A stretch of DNA of 44,570 nucleotides from a virus (Duplodnaviria > Heunggongvirae > Uroviricota > Caudoviricetes). Location of the stretch: IMG/VR virus record IMGVR_UViG_2877973648_000004. One strand, given 5' to 3'. The position numbers were made by a program, and so were the translations under genes. This document shows, piece by piece, positions 27,903 through 37,602 of this stretch (the first letter of the stretch is position 1; each line of letters begins with the position of its first letter). A model generated the notes under the pieces. The model was given only the letters and a program-made list of their open reading frames with translations, was not told where the DNA came from and searched no databases.

Positions 27903-28151
27903 TCAGACCGTTGATTTCATATTATCAGAAGGTGGTGTTACCCGGTAGCCGAGACGGCGGATAAATTGCATAAAACCATTAGGAGTAAAGACCTCTTCAT
28001 CATCCAGCAAAGGCCGCATAGAAACCATGCCATTGACGCGATAAATTAGATGCCTGCCCGATGAAGGAAAGCTAAACACCACGCAGCCGTCAGACCTTCT
28101 TACAATGTCATACCAGTTGTCTTCTGACGTTTGCAAAGCTGAATCACTCAC
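27903..28151 (-). CDS. Small protein downstream of DinI-like gene (candidate antirepressor, speculative)
   Basis: 82 aa, GTG start with GGGAGA RBS; second gene of the LexA-box operon. Confidence 0.35.
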   Translation of the reverse strand: MSDSALQTSEDNWYDIVRRSDGCVVFSFPSSGRHLIYRVNGMVSMRPLLDDEEVFTPNGFMQFIRRLGYRVTPPSDNMKSTV

Positions 28152-28268
28152 ATTTATGTTCTCCCTTCGAGCGACTAACAGACGCGATTAAAGATTGTCG
28201 GCAGCAGCATCAGAGGGTTACGCAAATTGCGGTATTCTGAAAAATGCGCGCCAGCCTTAAGCGCAATT

Positions 28269-28502
28269 CTAATAAAACCAGTCGTCAGCGCTTTCCCAGG
28301 TATCCTGGAGGATTGATTCAATTTTCTTTTTATCGTCCTTGTCACCACCAAAAACACTTAACCCATCGGACCCAGCACGGCGGATTGTGAGCCTGCAATT
28401 GTCATAGTGATCATTCAGGCGCTTAAGCAGTTCTTTCTCCAGTGCTGGTACTGCGCCTTTAGGAAGTTCTTTCATGCGATCAATGGTTAATTCAACTTTC
28501 AT
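28269..28502 (-). CDS. dinI: DinI-like DNA-damage-inducible protein
   Basis: MKVELTI...ILQDTWESADDWFY closely matches E. coli DinI (C-terminal ETWESADDWF); GGAGG RBS. Confidence 0.8.
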   Translation of the reverse strand: MKVELTIDRMKELPKGAVPALEKELLKRLNDHYDNCRLTIRRAGSDGLSVFGGDKDDKKKIESILQDTWESADDWFY

Positions 28503-28520
28503 AATAGCCTCCATTGCATG

Positions 28521-28540
28521 TACTGTGTTTTTATACAGTA
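28521..28540. promoter_or_regulatory. LexA (SOS) box
   Basis: TACTGTGTTTTTATACAGTA matches CTGT-N8-ACAG with TA flanks, about 20 nt upstream of the dinI-like start. Confidence 0.7.
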
Positions 28541-28607
28541 TACCTATGCACGGAAATGATCAACGTTTTAAGAGCACAAATTGTTAATTTTCTGTCAGTA
28601 TTAAAAA

Positions 28608-28632
28608 AAGAAAACCCGCCGTAGCGGGTTGA
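28608..28632 (-). terminator. Rho-independent terminator
   Basis: Minus strand aacccgc-tacg-gcgggtt followed by T-rich tract. Confidence 0.45.
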
Positions 28633-28762
28633 ATTAGCAATGTTTTATTACGCCGCTATTTGTTTCTGCTGACAAAGCTCCGGCAAATTAGCACGCACCA
28701 GCGCCTCAGCGAGCGCTGGAGGCACAGCGTTACCACAGCGCGCTACCAGAAAGAAAAAACCC

Positions 28763-28790
28763 GCATATAGCGGGTTTATTACAAGCTTTG
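28763..28790 (-). terminator. Rho-independent terminator after the HTH/peptidase gene
   Basis: Minus strand aaacccgc-tatat-gcgggttt followed by ttttctttc, just 3' of the stop at 28793. Confidence 0.5.
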
Positions 28791-28792
28791 AG

Positions 28793-29896
28793 TCAAACCA
28801 GTTGAAGTAGATTTCTTGGATTTGACAGTGGGCGGTTTACCGAGAATAACTCCCTAACCAACTCCTGGCTTAAACCAGTTTTCATGAGAATGCTCATCCA
28901 TGTTGCATCATCCAGCATTTCAATCGCCTCAGCTAACATACTCGGTTCTTCCGGGCGAATAAATTCATCTCCTGGTTCAACTTTCGTATATCCTTTAGAG
29001 TTCAAATGCATATAACCTGTTCTTGCCTGCTCCTGCGTCAGCAGGCCTAGAGTTGTTGCTCGGTAAATGCACATTTTAAGACTAATCTTCCACCGAAGCT
29101 TAAACTCAACTAGGGCGTTCCAATCGAACTGTCTTCCTCGTATACGGGGAAACTCTTTAATAAAGGACAATCGAGGAACTAGCAACGCGCTTGAAAAACG
29201 ATCCGCTTGCGATTCAGTCACTTTATCTCCTGTGGTTATACCTTCGTGCATAACCAAGTGCCCCAATTCGTGACCTAAATCTGATCGGAATCTGCATATA
29301 CTCTTTTTGACGTTATTTCGGATGATTACTGGCCTGTTGTTATGAACAGTAAAAGCATCTACGCGGTCATCCACTCCTGTCACATGAGCAACAATAACCC
29401 CCAAACTCTCAGCCAGTTTGACCATTGAGGATATAGGTCCCAGCCCTAAGTTCCATGCTCTTCTGCAGTCTTCCGCTACACGTTCAATATCATTTGGAGT
29501 CAGCAATTCAGCACCGGGGTGCTCAGGTATGAAAACATCAGGAAACTCGATTTCTCCCTCAACGGCAGAGATTATAATGTTAAGAATCTCCGCCCTTGCC
29601 AGAACACTATTGGTTAATGTTTGGGTTCTCGATTTTTTACTCCGAAAATGGCAAACATCGCTTTCTAAAGCATATTTTCGTTCAGTAAATAGGAAATCAG
29701 ATTTAATCATCAGCGCAGATGAGATTAATTCTAACAACTGTTCTGATGGTTTAAACCCTTTTTCCAATTTGCTAACGAATTGTTTTGTTTTACCAATTTT
29801 CTCCGCTAACTCTTCGCAGGAGAGCCCAACAGCCATTCTGGCTAATTTGAGCTTATCCCCACGATACTCAGCAAAGTCATTCACTTGATGTTCCAT
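28793..29896 (-). CDS. Fused HTH (XRE-type) / ImmA-IrrE-like zinc metallopeptidase
   Basis: N-terminal HTH-like LSCEELAEKIGKTKQFVSKLEKG; HEXXH-type motif HELGHLVMH in the C-terminal half; AT-rich. Confidence 0.6.
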   Translation of the reverse strand: MEHQVNDFAEYRGDKLKLARMAVGLSCEELAEKIGKTKQFVSKLEKGFKPSEQLLELISSALMIKSDFLFTERKYALESDVCHFRSKKSRTQTLTNSVLARAEILNIIISAVEGEIEFPDVFIPEHPGAELLTPNDIERVAEDCRRAWNLGLGPISSMVKLAESLGVIVAHVTGVDDRVDAFTVHNNRPVIIRNNVKKSICRFRSDLGHELGHLVMHEGITTGDKVTESQADRFSSALLVPRLSFIKEFPRIRGRQFDWNALVEFKLRWKISLKMCIYRATTLGLLTQEQARTGYMHLNSKGYTKVEPGDEFIRPEEPSMLAEAIEMLDDATWMSILMKTGLSQELVRELFSVNRPLSNPRNLLQLV

Positions 29897-30527
29897 TACT
29901 GCTCACATCCAAATCTTGATCTTTTTTACGGCGGCGAAGAGAGGCTTTGCCAATCTCAGCTTCATCCGGAAGAGTGTTGGTATCAAGAGACATAAGCGGC
30001 GCTGAAGCAGTAGATTGGTGTGAAACCATACTGATCTGGGCACCATATGCGTTAAACCCAACTAAAGCCACTTCCCAGCGAGGCAATGTTGATTCCAGCT
30101 CGCCATCTTCTTCATCGGATAAAAATGGTTCGGCGATGATCCGCCATGTAATATCTTGCTCGGCTTCAGTTTCACCGAACAATGAAAGTTGCTCATGCTC
30201 CACCCTATTTCGAAGAAGGCGATGCTTCTTCTTCGGGTTATTAATGCAATCTTTGGAGAACTGCAGCGGCACTTTATTTAACGCAACCACATAATCCAGT
30301 CCCTTCGAAACCATTTCCAGACCCGGCAGTGTCCCTTCACTTTGAATCAAATGATTTCTGACCCAATCATAAGCCCTTACACCTTCGGACCAGTTACTGT
30401 CCAGTGTGTGTTTGTGGTAGTACAATTGCTCGAGTACATTAGCAATTTCCGCTAACAACTGACGAACATTGCTTTCAGCAAGGTAAGGCTGAAATTCCCA
30501 ACAAGGTGCTAACTGGTTGTCGCTCAT
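29877..30527 (-). CDS. Hypothetical protein, upstream partner of the HTH/peptidase gene
   Basis: 216 aa, overlaps the downstream gene by about 20 nt (operon); no recognised motif. Confidence 0.45.
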   Translation of the reverse strand: MSDNQLAPCWEFQPYLAESNVRQLLAEIANVLEQLYYHKHTLDSNWSEGVRAYDWVRNHLIQSEGTLPGLEMVSKGLDYVVALNKVPLQFSKDCINNPKKKHRLLRNRVEHEQLSLFGETEAEQDITWRIIAEPFLSDEEDGELESTLPRWEVALVGFNAYGAQISMVSHQSTASAPLMSLDTNTLPDEAEIGKASLRRRKKDQDLDVSSNGTSSE

Positions 30528-30730
30528 TTCAAGTTTCGCTTTTTTTGGAATTCGTAAACCATATATTTTCGCATTTTCTCGATTTTGTCAACCAAGCAAC
30601 CAAAATCATTTACCGAAAATGATGATTAGAAAGATCCCGCTCATGTCGCATGAGTTGATTGCTAAGCAACCAAATACAAGCCTGACTGAGCTAGGCAACC
30701 ATAGACTTGGTAATGCTACCTTTCAGACAT

Positions 30731-30760
30731 AAAAAACCTCTAACTTAGAGGCTTTTATTC
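30731..30760 (-). terminator. Hairpin terminator (bidirectional-looking)
   Basis: cctcta-actt-agagg with A/T runs on both sides, after the stop of the 106-aa gene. Confidence 0.4.
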
Positions 30761-30782
30761 GTTTGCTATTGGAGTTAAACAC

Positions 30783-31103
30783 TTAGCCGTTGATGTCGCC
30801 GTGTTCAATCATACCGAACCATTCAAATTGCCCAATCGAACGTAGCGCGCACTGTCTAATTTTTTCTGCCTCCTCCGAATACTCATTAAACCCGGGAATA
30901 AATTCAAAATTACAGCAGCAAGAGCCTGAATCATAGAAGACACTTTCAATACATTTTACAAGCCCAACTGAAGCTACATAGTAAGAAAAACGTAGCATTT
31001 GAGACAGTTCCATCGCAACTCCATGCCTACTGGTAAGCGGGATCCCGAAAGCCTCAATTCCATATTCATTCATTTGGCCTTTTTCAGGCATTATGTAAGA
31101 CAT
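30783..31103 (-). CDS. Hypothetical protein (Cys-cluster SGSCCC)
   Basis: 106 aa ORF with its own terminator. Confidence 0.4.
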   Translation of the reverse strand: MSYIMPEKGQMNEYGIEAFGIPLTSRHGVAMELSQMLRFSYYVASVGLVKCIESVFYDSGSCCCNFEFIPGFNEYSEEAEKIRQCALRSIGQFEWFGMIEHGDING

Positions 31104-35363: not shown

Positions 35364-35465
35364 GTGCTTCTCCTGCTTATTGATAGCAGAAGTAAACCAC
35401 AGATTTATACTTTATGCAAACTTTGGATTTATTGCGTGCATAAACCAAATATTTACAATGACCAT
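35364..35465. promoter_or_regulatory. Immunity switch intergenic region (divergent promoters and operator-like inverted repeats)
   Basis: TTTATGCA...TGCATAAA inverted repeats; TTGCGT-16-TACAAT promoter-like element ending about 7 nt before the repressor ATG. Confidence 0.5.
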
Positions 35466-35849
35466 ATGAGAAAAGAAGAACCCAACCTCGTTCTGGTGGA
35501 GCGCCTTACTGAGATCACTGATCGCGGCGTTACCAAAGCAGACATGGCAAGAATAGCTGGAGTCACCCCTCAGGCCGTAAACGGCTGGTTCAAAAAAGGC
35601 GTGATTAGTAAGAAATCGGCACTGGCCATAGCCGACGCTGTTGGTATTTCTGTCGCCTGGCTACTCGGTGAAGACGTTGGGGAGAAAGACGGTCTCAAAC
35701 CGGACGAACAGCGTTTGCTCGAGCTCTACCGCCAGCTGCCAGAAGAAGAGCAACAGAACATGCTCCGCATCTTTTCGATACGTCTTAAGGAACTGGATGA
35801 GCTGTATGAGAAGTACATGAAGGGGCGGATTCGCTCGCAGGGGGACTGA
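35466..35849 (+). CDS. CI-like repressor, short HTH-only form (no LexA-like peptidase domain)
   Basis: 127 aa; HTH-like segment VTKADMARIAGVTPQAVNGWFKKG; too short to carry a peptidase domain. Confidence 0.65.
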   Translation: MRKEEPNLVLVERLTEITDRGVTKADMARIAGVTPQAVNGWFKKGVISKKSALAIADAVGISVAWLLGEDVGEKDGLKPDEQRLLELYRQLPEEEQQNMLRIFSIRLKELDELYEKYMKGRIRSQGD

Positions 35850-35990
35850 ATCGCTTTAGGTTTGTCCTGAATTTTTAGTTCCCATGAGACAATGATGTCT
35901 TTACTGGGGGGTGATTCCGCCATTTATGTTAGATTGAAAAAAACTATCAATTTAATTAATATTTATCACTACTACACGGGATGTTTTGCA

Positions 35991-37295
35991 ATGACAGCTG
36001 AGATTGTTGTAATAAATAATACTGGAATCGCCCTTGCTGCTGACTCTGCAGTCACCACAGAGCATAATAGATTAGTAAAAATAAATAATAGTGCGGAAAA
36101 ACTATTCGAACTATCTAAACACCATCCCGTGGGGATCATGATTTATAATAATGCGACACTGGGTGGCGCACCGTGGGAACTTATAATTAAATCCTATAGA
36201 AAACAATTGGGGAAAACTAGTTTCCCTACCATTAAAGAATATGTTAATGACTTTGTAAAATTCATCAATGGTAACTCAGACCTTATAACAAATGAAATGA
36301 GAGAGGCTTGCGTTATAAACCTTGTTGTTGATAACCTCAAAGGTTTGATGAGATACATTAATGATAATAATGTAGTAAACTATTTAACAATGAACCCCGC
36401 CGTTGAACTCGACAATGTTATTTTTCAAAACATAGTTAAGCAAGCCTTTGATTTAGAGATAGGAATCTTAAGGAATAATCTCTTTTTCGAAGGGTTTGAT
36501 ACAGAAGAGTTTAATGATGCTTTAGCATATATACAAGATTTAATATCGCCATACATTTCATCAATTATTGTTCTTGATAACTGTGAAAATATACAGCAAG
36601 AGCTTATGGAAAAAGTCATATTATATTCCACTTGTTTAATTTTCAAAGTCCATGCTAGTCGTACATATTCAGGGATTGTTATAACAGGTTATGGAGAGGA
36701 AGAATATTACCCTTCCATTTGCACTCTTCATATCTACGGCATTTTTAAAAACAAATTGATGATCCATAATATTGATGAGAAATCCCATAATGAGGTAACC
36801 AATATGGGGTTTGTTATACCATTTGCTCAAGAAGATGAAGTAGTAACTTTCATTGATGGGTGCAACCCTAACATCATTAATTTTAACAGAACTCTTACAG
36901 AGGAAGTTTTTGATCGGCTTAATCATTATGTTTCTAGCAATATTTTCCCTGCAATGAACAATGGAGTACTAGCCAATCACTTCTCCAGTGAAATTGAGGA
37001 ACTCAAAAACGTACTTTTACAAGATCACGATACTAAACTTGAAAGCTATATTGTTAATAACCATACAAATAAAATGATATCGATGTTGCAATCACTTGGG
37101 AAGGCAGATCTTGCGTATATGGCCGAATCATTAGTGAACATCACTGCATTCAAAAGAAAAGTATCACATGATTATGAAACTGTCGGTGGGCCTGTTGATG
37201 TCGCTGTGATATCAAAAGTTGATGGATTTGTTTGGGTAAATCGTAAACACTACTTCCCTAAAGAGCTAAACTCTAACTACTTTAATCGTCAATAA
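35991..37295 (+). CDS. Large AT-rich protein with N-terminal proteasome-beta/HslV-like Ntn-hydrolase domain
   Basis: Track ORF 35892-37295; from internal Met the sequence is M-TAEIVVINNTGIALAADSAVT...EKLFEL...VGIMIYNNATLGG, matching proteasome-beta Thr1/Gly11/Asp17/Lys~33 spacing; very low GC. Confidence 0.5.
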   Translation: MTAEIVVINNTGIALAADSAVTTEHNRLVKINNSAEKLFELSKHHPVGIMIYNNATLGGAPWELIIKSYRKQLGKTSFPTIKEYVNDFVKFINGNSDLITNEMREACVINLVVDNLKGLMRYINDNNVVNYLTMNPAVELDNVIFQNIVKQAFDLEIGILRNNLFFEGFDTEEFNDALAYIQDLISPYISSIIVLDNCENIQQELMEKVILYSTCLIFKVHASRTYSGIVITGYGEEEYYPSICTLHIYGIFKNKLMIHNIDEKSHNEVTNMGFVIPFAQEDEVVTFIDGCNPNIINFNRTLTEEVFDRLNHYVSSNIFPAMNNGVLANHFSSEIEELKNVLLQDHDTKLESYIVNNHTNKMISMLQSLGKADLAYMAESLVNITAFKRKVSHDYETVGGPVDVAVISKVDGFVWVNRKHYFPKELNSNYFNRQ

Positions 37296-37312
37296 CACAT
37301 AAGGAGATATTA

Positions 37313-37417
37313 ATGTCTATAAAGCAAGCTCTCAATAACGCTTATAAAATCATTGTAAATCAAAAATTTGGTAATAAAGAACAGCAGCACTCGCCGAAAG
37401 GATTTAACCAGCAGTAA
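37313..37417 (+). CDS. Small ORF (about 34 aa) downstream of the proteasome-like gene
   Basis: AAGGAGA RBS 6 nt before ATG; predicted MSIKQALNNAYKIIVNQKFGNKEQQHSPKGFNQQ; frame depends on homopolymer reading. Confidence 0.3.
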   Translation: MSIKQALNNAYKIIVNQKFGNKEQQHSPKGFNQQ

Positions 37418-37420
37418 TGA

Positions 37421-37450
37421 AAAAACCCGGCCACAGCGCCGGGTTTTTTA
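37421..37450 (+). terminator. Rho-independent terminator of the repressor operon
   Basis: cccggc-cacagc-gccggg followed by tttttt on the plus strand. Confidence 0.55.
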
Positions 37451-37602
37451 CACCCTCACCCACCATCTCAGCCGCCAACACCCAGCCACGAAGTCCCCGA
37501 TCTCGACCTTAGCGTCGGGATTTTTTTTGCCTGCGATTCTGCAGACGTGTCACAAAACCCAGCCACATAAACCTCAGATTTACAATTAACACCAACCTTA
37601 AG

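Follow-up and report, generated by a model that had tools for sequence, protein, structure and literature searches.

Position and gene content of the locus

The window analysed here is the complete 44,570-nt stretch of IMG/VR virus record IMGVR_UViG_2877973648_000004 (Caudoviricetes). Downstream of its CI-like repressor gene, on the same strand, it carries a gene for a predicted proteasome-family protease, which is followed by a small gene for a basic micro-protein and by a terminator. The features of the locus are as follows.

35436..35849, + strand: prophage repressor, HTH_3/CI-type, without S24 peptidase domain
35840..37419, no strand: variable slot for cargo in Rac-like prophages, occupied in the window by an AT-rich cassette
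35934..35962, + strand: sigma-70-like promoter candidate, TTGAAA-17-TAATAT, 9/12 consensus matches (consensus match only)
35991..37295, + strand: protease gene, predicted 434-aa proteasome-family N-terminal-threonine hydrolase
37301..37307, + strand: Shine-Dalgarno sequence AAGGAGA of the micro-protein gene, read from the sequence, 5 nt before the ATG
37313..37417, + strand: micro-protein gene, 34 aa, basic and hydrophilic, translation MSIKQALNNAYKIIVNQKFGNKEQQHSPKGFNQQ
37421..37449, + strand: intrinsic terminator of the bidirectional type, AAAAAACCCGGC-CACAGC-GCCGGGTTTTTT, closing the repressor operon

The repressor matched HTH_3 (E 1.5e-6) and Phage_CI_repr (8e-4) in Pfam and transcriptional regulator or repressor families in PHROGs. 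Its start is GTG 35436 in RefSeq; the alternative start ATG 35466 would give a protein of 127 aa. In the RefSeq sequence NZ_CP100890 the repressor gene is divergent from the YdaS/YdaT genes. An earlier note on this DNA had placed the protease gene directly 3′ of the repressor, in a slot of the repressor operon equivalent to that of rexAB, and both statements hold true: the two genes are separated by a gap of 142 nt, and sister prophages have different cargo at the same place. In lambda this slot is occupied by rexAB, and in Rac it adjoins sieB. In BLASTN comparisons with two sister prophages, L095 and L096, homology stopped at 35821-35839 and restarted at 37420 or 37512, and between these homologous flanks L095 and L096 carry unrelated genes. 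As the cargo of the sister prophages in this slot matched no known defence family, the slot is not a proven defence hotspot.

The cassette consisting of the protease and micro-protein genes has a GC content of 33.9% compared to 51.5% in the rest of the window, in agreement with the low GC content previously ascribed to the protease gene. The promoter candidate is located within the cassette, 5′ of the protease start. The operon indeed ends in a terminator, as had been proposed, since a strong hairpin is formed at 37421-37449 (RNA fold: dG -18.9 kcal/mol, z -4.67, 0 of 200 shuffled sequences folding as well), though this terminator is, judged from the alignments, a feature of the prophage backbone and not a part of the cassette: it is common to L096, which carries different cargo, and homology resumes at 37420. 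Rfam and tRNA scans of the window gave no match.

The protease had been described as an ORF of 434-467 aa. The ORF itself was confirmed, with coordinates 35892-37295 (+) in the longest reading, but the longer start was not. Sequence comparisons place the start at ATG 35991, giving a protein of 434 aa: positions 1-427 of the profile phrog_5990 aligned with residues 1-434 of the protease (PHROGs profile comparison), and 246 of 263 relatives have MT as their first residues. Most of the 17 relatives with another N-terminus have either a mis-called upstream start, with MTAE lying internally, or a TTG/GVG-type start codon (LTAE/VTAE-type), and in two of the 17 the N-terminus is missing. An Enterobacter annotation of the same protease cluster also has 434 aa. 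The 467-aa reading, which would add a 33-residue propeptide, was rejected because the relatives lack this extension; the promoter candidate lies inside these 33 mis-called codons.

Fold, catalytic residues and helical insertions of the protease

The protease is named hypothetical in every source. It matched no family in Pfam or NCBIfam, and in PHROGs only a family of unknown function was found. The top match in a profile search of the PDB was the C-terminal GGxIDVAVIxKxDG motif of the Thermoplasma beta subunit, which remained below the threshold, and the only match among the BFVD viral structures was a generic viral proteasome beta. In the structure model the protease has the four-layer alpha-beta-beta-alpha fold of proteasome subunits, which makes it a predicted Ntn-hydrolase of the proteasome-beta/HslV type, as the earlier note had suggested from an alignment. 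The protein is predicted to act as a peptide-bond hydrolase or transpeptidase.

Residues M1, T2, D18, and K37 were invariant across 40 homologues. D18 corresponds to Asp17 after removal of the methionine, and K37, located within the motif EKLF that corresponds to KKLF of Thermoplasma beta, is the equivalent of Lys33; this register was established by comparing the protease with the Thermoplasma beta sequence by eye. Thr1, Asp17, and Lys33 of the previously proposed active-site pattern were thus found at the expected places, whereas Gly11 is no feature of the family. The position of the oxyanion-hole residue Gly47 is occupied by Asn53 in the window protein and by Gly in the family consensus (MVYGxG). 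This exchange may be tolerated because the function is carried by the backbone NH. As the protease has no propeptide, Thr1 would become the N-terminal residue once the initiator methionine is removed, a situation known from E. coli HslV. An N-terminal threonine after Met removal is supported by the invariant T2 and by the MT start of 246 of the 263 relatives, and the removal itself, by methionine aminopeptidase, would be expected because the second residue is small.

The catalytic core comprises residues 1-95, 223-292, and 369-434 and is split by two helical insertions at residues ~96-222 and ~293-368. The protein had been thought to carry about 230 further residues of unknown function in addition to the core; in the model secondary structure these are the two insertions, which lie inside the fold. 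The elements of the model are, by residue:

4-53: S1-S5
62-94: H1/H2
101-218: extra helices (insertion 1, after H1/H2)
227-277: S6-S9
281-289: H3
293-368: helical hairpin (insertion 2, between H3 and H4)
371-392: H4, followed by S10 and S11

The S3/S4 region is modelled with low confidence as a short loop (residues 22-34). The insertions are hypervariable, with a majority-residue fraction of 0.33 vs ~0.8 in the core, and when used as separate queries they did not match any PDB sequence. Both would occupy sites that are turned, in a 20S proteasome, towards the cavity of the ring and the interface between rings, and a classical barrel is therefore unlikely for this protease. The hypervariable insertions probably represent a specificity or sensor module.

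The micro-protein partner and the distribution of the pair

The earlier note had mentioned a short downstream ORF with a strong ribosome-binding site as a possible partner of the protease, and this proposal gained in strength. The ribosome-binding site is the AAGGAGA at 37301-37307. A small ORF follows the protease gene in all 66 distinct downstream regions, and an ATG combined with a Shine-Dalgarno sequence was present in 53 of the 66 loci, compared to 1.8% of shuffled sequences and 1 of 66 reverse complements. Substitutions in the small ORF are of the coding type, being biased to the third codon position (e.g., 229/180/409 by codon position). The small ORF was also found after the protease gene in every distant homologue examined, namely in loci of Enterococcus, Ruegeria, Rhizobium, Streptococcus, and Porphyromonas, and the arrangement is kept across Proteobacteria, Firmicutes, and Bacteroidetes. 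These comparisons strongly support the 34-aa ORF as a real partner of the protease, a constant companion that was previously unremarked.

The partner peptides contain 15% lysine and have a mean net charge of +4.6 and a GRAVY value of -0.91; the Rhizobium partner is acidic, not basic. They have neither a signal sequence nor a conserved C-terminus. The offset between the protease gene and the micro-protein start ranges from -29 to +29 nt, and the second gene is translationally coupled to the first, its product being a lysine-rich and probably disordered peptide of 34-67 aa. The peptide has a short aromatic motif that resembles hydrophobic-K/R/D-F/Y-x-P/N. The conserved synteny suggests that peptide and protease interact, and the peptide would then be a ligand of the protease and function as pseudo-substrate, inhibitor, or adaptor. 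Divergence of the peptides was correlated with divergence of the insertions and with that of the core to the same extent (Spearman 0.43 for both), which does not discriminate between these two parts of the protease.

Clustering at 50% identity resolved the protease family (E <= 1e-30) into 3,406 clusters. Its hosts include Enterobacterales, Vibrio, Stenotrophomonas, Rhizobium, Ruegeria, Streptococcus, Enterococcus, and Porphyromonas, and members also occur in phages and satellites. Neighbourhoods were analysed for 41 non-redundant loci, in which the proteases are <90% identical, with 150 nearest-neighbour proteins. The main neighbours were Q antiterminators (12), holins and lysins, HTH repressors (10), S24 repressors (6), and satellite primases (3). 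In only 13 of the 41 loci is the pair co-directional with both flanking genes, and in 11 to 15 it runs opposite to both. Carriers of the pair include a P4-like satellite, Streptococcus satellites, and a filamentous prophage, where it lies at the end. In a Providencia phage and a Proteus prophage it lies on the lytic strand, flanked on one side by the lysis cassette and on the other by the gene for a Q antiterminator or a methylase, and in a Porphyromonas phage it is located within the head-gene block. On plasmids the pair is rare (10 of 72,556 records); one locus, on a Rhizobium plasmid, has a multiubiquitin/ThiF operon in its vicinity, an anecdotal observation.

By its genomic positions the pair is mobile, and elsewhere it is found in classic moron positions, its usual slots being those next to a repressor and those from Q to the lysis genes. 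It has the sequence hallmarks of a prophage moron or lysogenic-conversion cassette, i.e., a distinct GC content, variable slots, an orientation of its own, a promoter-like site, and a terminator. The copy in the window is best regarded as a two-gene moron that moves horizontally and has been inserted into the repressor operon of a Rac-like prophage. The family, which is large, can now be assigned to the accessory genes of prophages, filamentous phages, and phage satellites, and the slots that hold it are often ones expressed in the lysogen.

Possible roles of the pair and comparison with known systems

The location of the pair in the repressor operon suggests that it is expressed in the lysogen, where transcripts starting at the repressor promoter would extend into it; a promoter of its own may contribute. 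From this genomic position the pair may plausibly act in defence. Satellite and prophage cargo hotspots are reportedly reservoirs of anti-phage systems, as described by Rousset et al. We tentatively favour, while giving it somewhat less than an even chance, that the pair acts in superinfection exclusion or abortive infection through a protease whose activity is gated by the micro-protein. Its first gene encodes a predicted proteasome-family threonine hydrolase, in which Thr1, Asp17, and Lys33 stand in the canonical register. An incoming phage would be recognised by the variable helical module or would trigger the loss of a labile micro-protein, and the protease would then cut a phage protein or an essential host protein. 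The Asn at the Gly47 position, the acidic partner in Rhizobium, and the loci co-directional with lytic genes speak against this proposal. In its more far-reaching form, the pair would be the first immune system against phages to be based on a proteasome-family threonine protease, a stand-alone enzyme of the PMI type (see below) whose insertions sense or select phage targets, whose active site is gated by the micro-protein, and which has been spread across phyla by prophages and satellites; we consider this possible but less likely than not.

Searches against defence collections gave the following results. None of the families in PADLOC-DB v2.0.0 (2023 library) matched the protease at E <= 1, and no proteasome-family or Ntn enzyme was among the matching PADLOC models. 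Matches among the 150 neighbour proteins of the 41 loci were mainly to methyltransferase models, each with a member count of 1, together with isolated single matches to C3a212, mad2, and PDC-S69. As hardly any known defence family apart from methyltransferases occurs among these neighbours, there is no defence-island signal. A characterised anti-phage system built on a proteasome-like or Ntn enzyme was found neither in PADLOC nor in the literature searched, in line with the earlier note. That note had called the locus a candidate for an undescribed system; this is valid in so far as no defence counterpart was found, but proteasome homologues with insertions of this kind have been catalogued as PMI-3/PMI-4 (PMC8665760).

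Four other explanations were considered. The pair might be a toxin-antitoxin or addiction module, with the protease as toxin and the micro-protein as labile antitoxin, or the reverse, which stabilises a mobile element and for which defence would be incidental. Such a module would have the architecture seen here, a tight unit of two coupled genes with start offsets of -29 to +29 nt, a partner that is always present, a restriction to mobile elements, and fast evolution of both genes together. Against it, no toxin-antitoxin family in PADLOC, Pfam, or NCBIfam was matched, the pair is scarce on plasmids, where addiction modules thrive, and the hypervariable insertions suggest diverse external targets rather than one fixed cellular target. 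We regard this explanation as unlikely.

A benefit for the phage during lytic growth was judged improbable, too. Here the protease would degrade or process host proteins, e.g., defence factors, or phage proteins, and would serve as a counter-defence or takeover factor. The 13 of 41 loci co-directional with both neighbours, for example those in the Q-holin interval or the head-gene block, are compatible with a role in the lytic cycle, and this holds true for the lytic-strand positions before the lysis cassette in the Providencia phage and the Proteus prophage and for the Porphyromonas phage. The window copy, however, lies in the repressor operon and would be expressed in the lysogen, the pair is antisense to late transcription in 11 to 15 of the 41 loci, and it is also carried by satellites, which run no lytic programme of their own.

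Slightly less likely still is peptide processing or ligation similar to that of connectase, in which the micro-protein would be a substrate, cut at its aromatic motif to a mature peptide or attached as a tag. Neither the S3/S4 insertion of connectase nor its loss of H1/H2 is seen in the protease, the peptides have no signal sequence or conserved C-terminus, and no target or export gene is linked. If the protease were a peptide-specific processing or ligating enzyme, it might be of use in biotechnology, as is connectase. Cleavage of the adjacent repressor leading to prophage induction, comparable to the cleavage of ImmR by ImmA, was suggested by the location immediately 3′ of an HTH-only repressor without a LexA-type S24 self-cleavage domain and by the frequency of repressor-type HTH genes among the neighbours (10 of 150), but it is very improbable. 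It was rejected since the protease gene is entirely lacking in sister prophages that have this same repressor and since most homologues are far from repressors (in lysis, tail, and head regions or near satellite primases). In addition, six of the neighbouring repressors already have S24 domains.

If the favoured role in phage defence is correct, proteasome-type threonine proteolysis would be a new catalytic class in bacterial immunity and would recall the part that the proteasome plays in the antiviral defence of eukaryotes. Non-barrel homologues of the proteasome are almost entirely unexplored. In a catalogue obtained by sequence analysis, which contains 22 new families of proteasome homologues without a functional clue for any of them, PMI-3 and PMI-4 are listed as homologues with multiple insertions, with no function assigned and no informative genomic context or co-occurring gene reported (Fuchs, Alva and Lupas 2021, Bioinformatics 37:4694; PMC8665760). 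PMI-4 is represented by HDY66466.1, comprises 501 nr90 sequences, and is abundant in many bacterial phyla and recorded in phages (PMC8665760). Judged by the described architecture and distribution, the protease most probably belongs to the PMI-4 group. Both have a proteasome-like core with Thr1/Asp17/Lys33 and no propeptide, a long insertion after H1/H2 and, in the model secondary structure of the protease, a second one between H3 and H4, and both are spread over many bacterial phyla and present in phages. They differ in size, the present family being much larger, with 3,406 clusters at 50% identity. Since the authors of the catalogue reported no genomic context, the micro-protein partner and the location in moron or immunity slots are additions to what is known of PMI-4.

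The 20S proteasome beta subunit, HslV, Anbu, and BPH share the fold with the protease and differ from it in three respects: its ~200 residues of helical insertions would clash with ring or double-ring assembly, no AAA+ partner such as HslU is encoded near its gene among the neighbours in the 41 loci, and its gene is mobile cargo of phages and satellites instead of a housekeeping gene. HslV in particular is compact (~175 aa), assembles into double hexameric rings, and has its gene together with that of HslU, in contrast to the protease. Connectase, an archaeal peptide ligase found only in methanogens, has a two-helix lid between S3 and S4 and no H1/H2, and its substrate is not encoded alongside, whereas the protease keeps H1/H2 and has its insertions elsewhere. 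RexAB of lambda and SieB of Rac, lambda, and P22 occupy the same niche as the pair, being repressor-linked lysogen cargo that ends at the operon terminator; they have no relation to it in sequence or fold, and RexB and SieB are membrane proteins, whereas the pair is predicted to be soluble and enzymatic. Immunity by regulated proteolysis is a concept which the proposed role would share with the Lit metalloprotease, CRISPR-associated Lon/CalpL, CHAT/Craspase, and gasdermin-activating proteases, all of which differ from the protease in catalytic class and fold.

The cassette in the repressor operon

The proteasome-like open reading frame (ORF) of the window, here called the protease, is a real ORF with a far lower GC content than the prophage, as the earlier note had stated: 33.9% for the ORF and its cassette vs 51.5% in the rest of the window. 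Also as claimed there, it follows a CI-like repressor gene on the same strand, the distance being 142 nt. The locus comprises the following features:

35436 or 35466 to 35849, + strand: small HTH_3/CI-type repressor (Pfam HTH_3, E = 1.5e-6)
35892-37295, + strand: protease ORF as listed; the true start lies inside it, at 35991
35934-35962: promoter-like TTGAAA-17-TAATAT, a consensus match only, inside the spurious N-terminal extension
37313-37417, + strand: micro-protein ORF of 34 codons between protease and terminator, with AAGGAGA ahead of its start
37421-37449: strong A-tract/U-tract hairpin terminator (dG -18.9 kcal/mol, z -4.67)

In a 99%-identical E. coli chromosome, RefSeq annotates the region as a Rac-like prophage with genes for O/P-like replication proteins, YdaE, RecE, RecT, and an integrase, and with YdaS/YdaT-like genes divergent from the repressor. 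The intergenic region that separates the repressor from the divergent YdaS-like gene contains a direct repeat with a spacing of 48 bp (35393-35407, TAAACCACAGATTTA; 35441-35455, TAAACCAAATATTTA), whose copies are candidate operator sites.

The flanks of the cassette are common to sister Rac-like prophages, in which homology stops at 35821-35839 and restarts at 37420 or 37512, the gap between holding unrelated genes. The cassette therefore fills a variable cargo slot within the repressor operon, in agreement with the rexAB-equivalent position proposed earlier. As homology restarts at 37420, the terminator is part of the prophage backbone; the gene is indeed followed by a strong hairpin, but this does not belong to the cassette. 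Of 5,426 complete E. coli genomes, 13 carried the full cassette with high DNA identity, in each case on the chromosome. In two sister prophages of E. coli (locus L095, 2048-2830; locus L096, 1970-3352) the slot contained other uncharacterized cargo, namely, 84-aa and 173-aa coiled-coil proteins in one and an extra HTH protein with 101-aa and 211-aa proteins in the other; none of it showed a convincing match to known defense families.

Two further observations concern the window. Another terminator-like hairpin, with eight T after it (37499-37522), is located 50 nt past the first terminator, within a stretch of ~430 nt without an annotated gene ahead of kil/ydaE-like genes, and this region had no match in Rfam. 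On the minus strand, a gene for an ImmA/IrrE-family metallopeptidase (367-aa ORF) overlaps a 216-aa ORF (28793-30527) in another AT-rich stretch (GC 0.39-0.46 over 28000-31000), which looks like more accessory prophage cargo.

Start site, fold, and active site of the protease

RefSeq/PGAP and many GenBank records give the protease 32 to 33 additional N-terminal residues (466-467 aa; 35892-35990). However, phrog_5990 matches the 434-aa form end to end, the N terminus is MTAE in 39/39 aligned homologues and starts with MT in 246 of 263 relatives (most of the remaining 17 start with TTG/GTG or contain MTAE internally), and Enterobacter members of the same 90% cluster are annotated at 434 aa. Translation therefore starts with Met-Thr at ATG 35991, and the 467-aa reading was rejected as a mis-call. 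Of the 434 to 467 aa suggested previously, only the lower value holds, and Thr indeed follows the initiator Met directly. As judged from the sequence, the mis-annotated extension conceals the predicted N-terminal nucleophile.

No Pfam, NCBIfam, or PADLOC model matched the protease, and no solved relative covering its full length was found. An AlphaFold2 model based on 40 homologues was confident (pLDDT 85.9, pTM 0.80). With Met removed, the first 21 residues align without a gap to the Thermoplasma beta subunit (T1, D/E17, V20, T21), "EKLF" aligns with "KKLF" at Lys33, and the C-terminal "VGGPxDVAVISKxDGF" aligns with "SGGMIDVAVITRKDGY". M1, T2, D18, and K37 are invariant in the aligned homologues. 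The protease was shown to have the fold of the proteasome family, a complete Thr1/Asp17/Lys33 set, and no propeptide, and it is very likely an active Thr hydrolase or transpeptidase. Of the proteasome-beta/HslV pattern proposed earlier, Thr1, Asp17, and the Lys near 33 were found. The Gly47-equivalent position is Asn in the window protein but Gly in the family consensus.

The earlier picture of a core followed by ~230 further residues could not be maintained. In the secondary-structure map of the model, four helices are inserted after H1/H2 (~residues 96-222) and H3 is separated from H4 by a long hairpin of helices (~residues 293-368); since both predicted insertions lie within the fold, the map rules out an appended domain. 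Sequence is hypervariable in the insertions (majority-residue fraction 0.33-0.34) and highly conserved in the N- and C-terminal core blocks (0.78-0.83), with 0.57 in the middle block.

The micro-protein and the distribution of the pair

In all 92 loci with the protease, a small same-strand ORF starts between -33 and +42 nt from the protease stop. All 66 distinct downstream regions contain an ORF with a length of 28 codons or more, 53 of them with ATG plus a Shine-Dalgarno (SD) match; with the same criteria, shuffled sequences gave 33% (any start) and 1.8% (ATG plus SD), and reverse complements 29/66 and 1/66. Substitutions by codon position were 229/180/409 and 66/49/171 within length-matched groups. 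The ORF was called in several records by independent gene callers and depositors and also occurs beside distant protease homologues (27-32% identity) of Enterococcus, Ruegeria, and Rhizobium. The earlier suspicion that this short ORF with a strong ribosome binding site encodes a partner is thus well supported. Comparison of the loci showed the micro-protein to be an obligate companion of the protease and translationally coupled to it, and it is very likely a functional partner.

The micro-proteins (34-67 aa, 15% Lys, mean net charge +4.6) are very hydrophilic (GRAVY -0.91), had no match in Pfam, and are nearly unalignable across clades. They have in common a short motif, hydrophobic-K/R/D-F/Y-(F)-x-P/N (for example, NQKFG in the window and VLKFNES in Enterococcus, as well as AAKFP, QKKFNPS, and KDFF), and many carry a second aromatic motif close to the C terminus.

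The protease family is large: clustering at 50% identity gave 6,086 clusters for a cutoff of E ≤ 1e-3 and 3,406 for E ≤ 1e-30. Nearest neighbors in 41 non-redundant loci were Q antiterminators (12), HTH repressors (10), DUF968 (7), S24 repressors (6), YdaT (4), satellite primases (3), and holins and lysins. In only 13 of these loci does the pair share its direction with both neighbors; in at least 11, both neighbors run on the opposite strand. Plasmids seldom carry the pair (10/72,556 records). Its locations include:

Providencia phage, Proteus prophage: between Q or methylase and lysis genes
Klebsiella prophage, Stenotrophomonas phage: adjoining the holin, opposite strand
Pectobacterium: tail region
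Serratia: after the primase of a P4-like element
Streptococcus satellites: 3' end
Vibrio: end of a filamentous prophage
Porphyromonas phage: head block

The pair was shown to form a cassette that is mobile, foreign in composition, and located in moron slots, in the window within the repressor operon.

Three neighborhoods contain additional genes. In Pectobacterium prophages (L087, 9584-17131; L088, 9585-17287) the gene directly 3' of the pair encodes a giant protein (2,500-2,800 aa) that has MuF_C and LPD domains and belongs to the phage-borne polymorphic-toxin type. In Vibrio vulnificus (L097, 1-5297) the pair closes a Zot-encoding filamentous prophage downstream of a protein with a weak PLDc_2 domain and of a 107-aa ORF; the micro-protein gene and the protease stop overlap by 8 nt. 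On Rhizobium gallicum plasmid pRgalIE4872c (L103, 5671-7221) a distant homologue (30% identity, MTAE start) with a 67-aa downstream ORF has, at a distance of ~1.4 kb, an operon whose annotations read "multiubiquitin domain-containing protein" and "ThiF family adenylyltransferase"; this proximity of ubiquitin-like conjugation genes may be a coincidence or reflect a defense-island neighborhood.

Possible function and relation to known proteasome homologues

In the proposed mechanism, methionine excision would expose Thr1, as in E. coli HslV, and the protease would act outside a barrel on specific targets picked by its variable helical module. The micro-protein would bind it as pseudo-substrate, inhibitor, or adaptor, and the pair, produced in the lysogen, would mediate exclusion or abortive infection through proteolysis. 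This full defense scenario is a tentative candidate, somewhat short of an even chance. Counted against it are the missing PADLOC match, the near absence of known defense families, methyltransferases aside, among 150 neighboring proteins, and the uncharacterized nature of the alternative slot cargo. A sizeable minority of loci is co-directional with lytic genes, which also argues against defense. A role in the lytic cycle or in counter-defense is unlikely, and an addiction or toxin-antitoxin unit is similarly improbable. A connectase-like enzyme processing or ligating peptides, with the micro-protein as substrate, appears slightly more doubtful. An induction protease cleaving the repressor is highly improbable and is contradicted by the sister prophages, which keep the same repressor without the protease gene. 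The pair is nonetheless clearly delimited and widely distributed, and as a candidate it lends itself to easy testing.

Every database source calls the protein "hypothetical," and the literature searched contained no characterized system in which a proteasome-like or Ntn enzyme acts against phages, in line with the earlier proposal of a candidate for an undescribed system. The family itself, however, is probably already listed as an uncharacterized proteasome homologue, so that present evidence does not make it new in a categorical sense. In 2021, Fuchs, Alva and Lupas (PMC8665760) listed 22 new proteasome-homologue families and found no genomic context or co-occurrence hinting at function. Among their "proteasome homologues with multiple insertions," PMI-3 and PMI-4 have insertions at two sites, which, the authors argued, should block ring and double-ring assembly; PMI-4 is abundant, occurs in many phyla, and was recorded in phages. 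The window protease has exactly the same two insertion sites, and its family is very probably PMI-4, as it matches the published description of this group.
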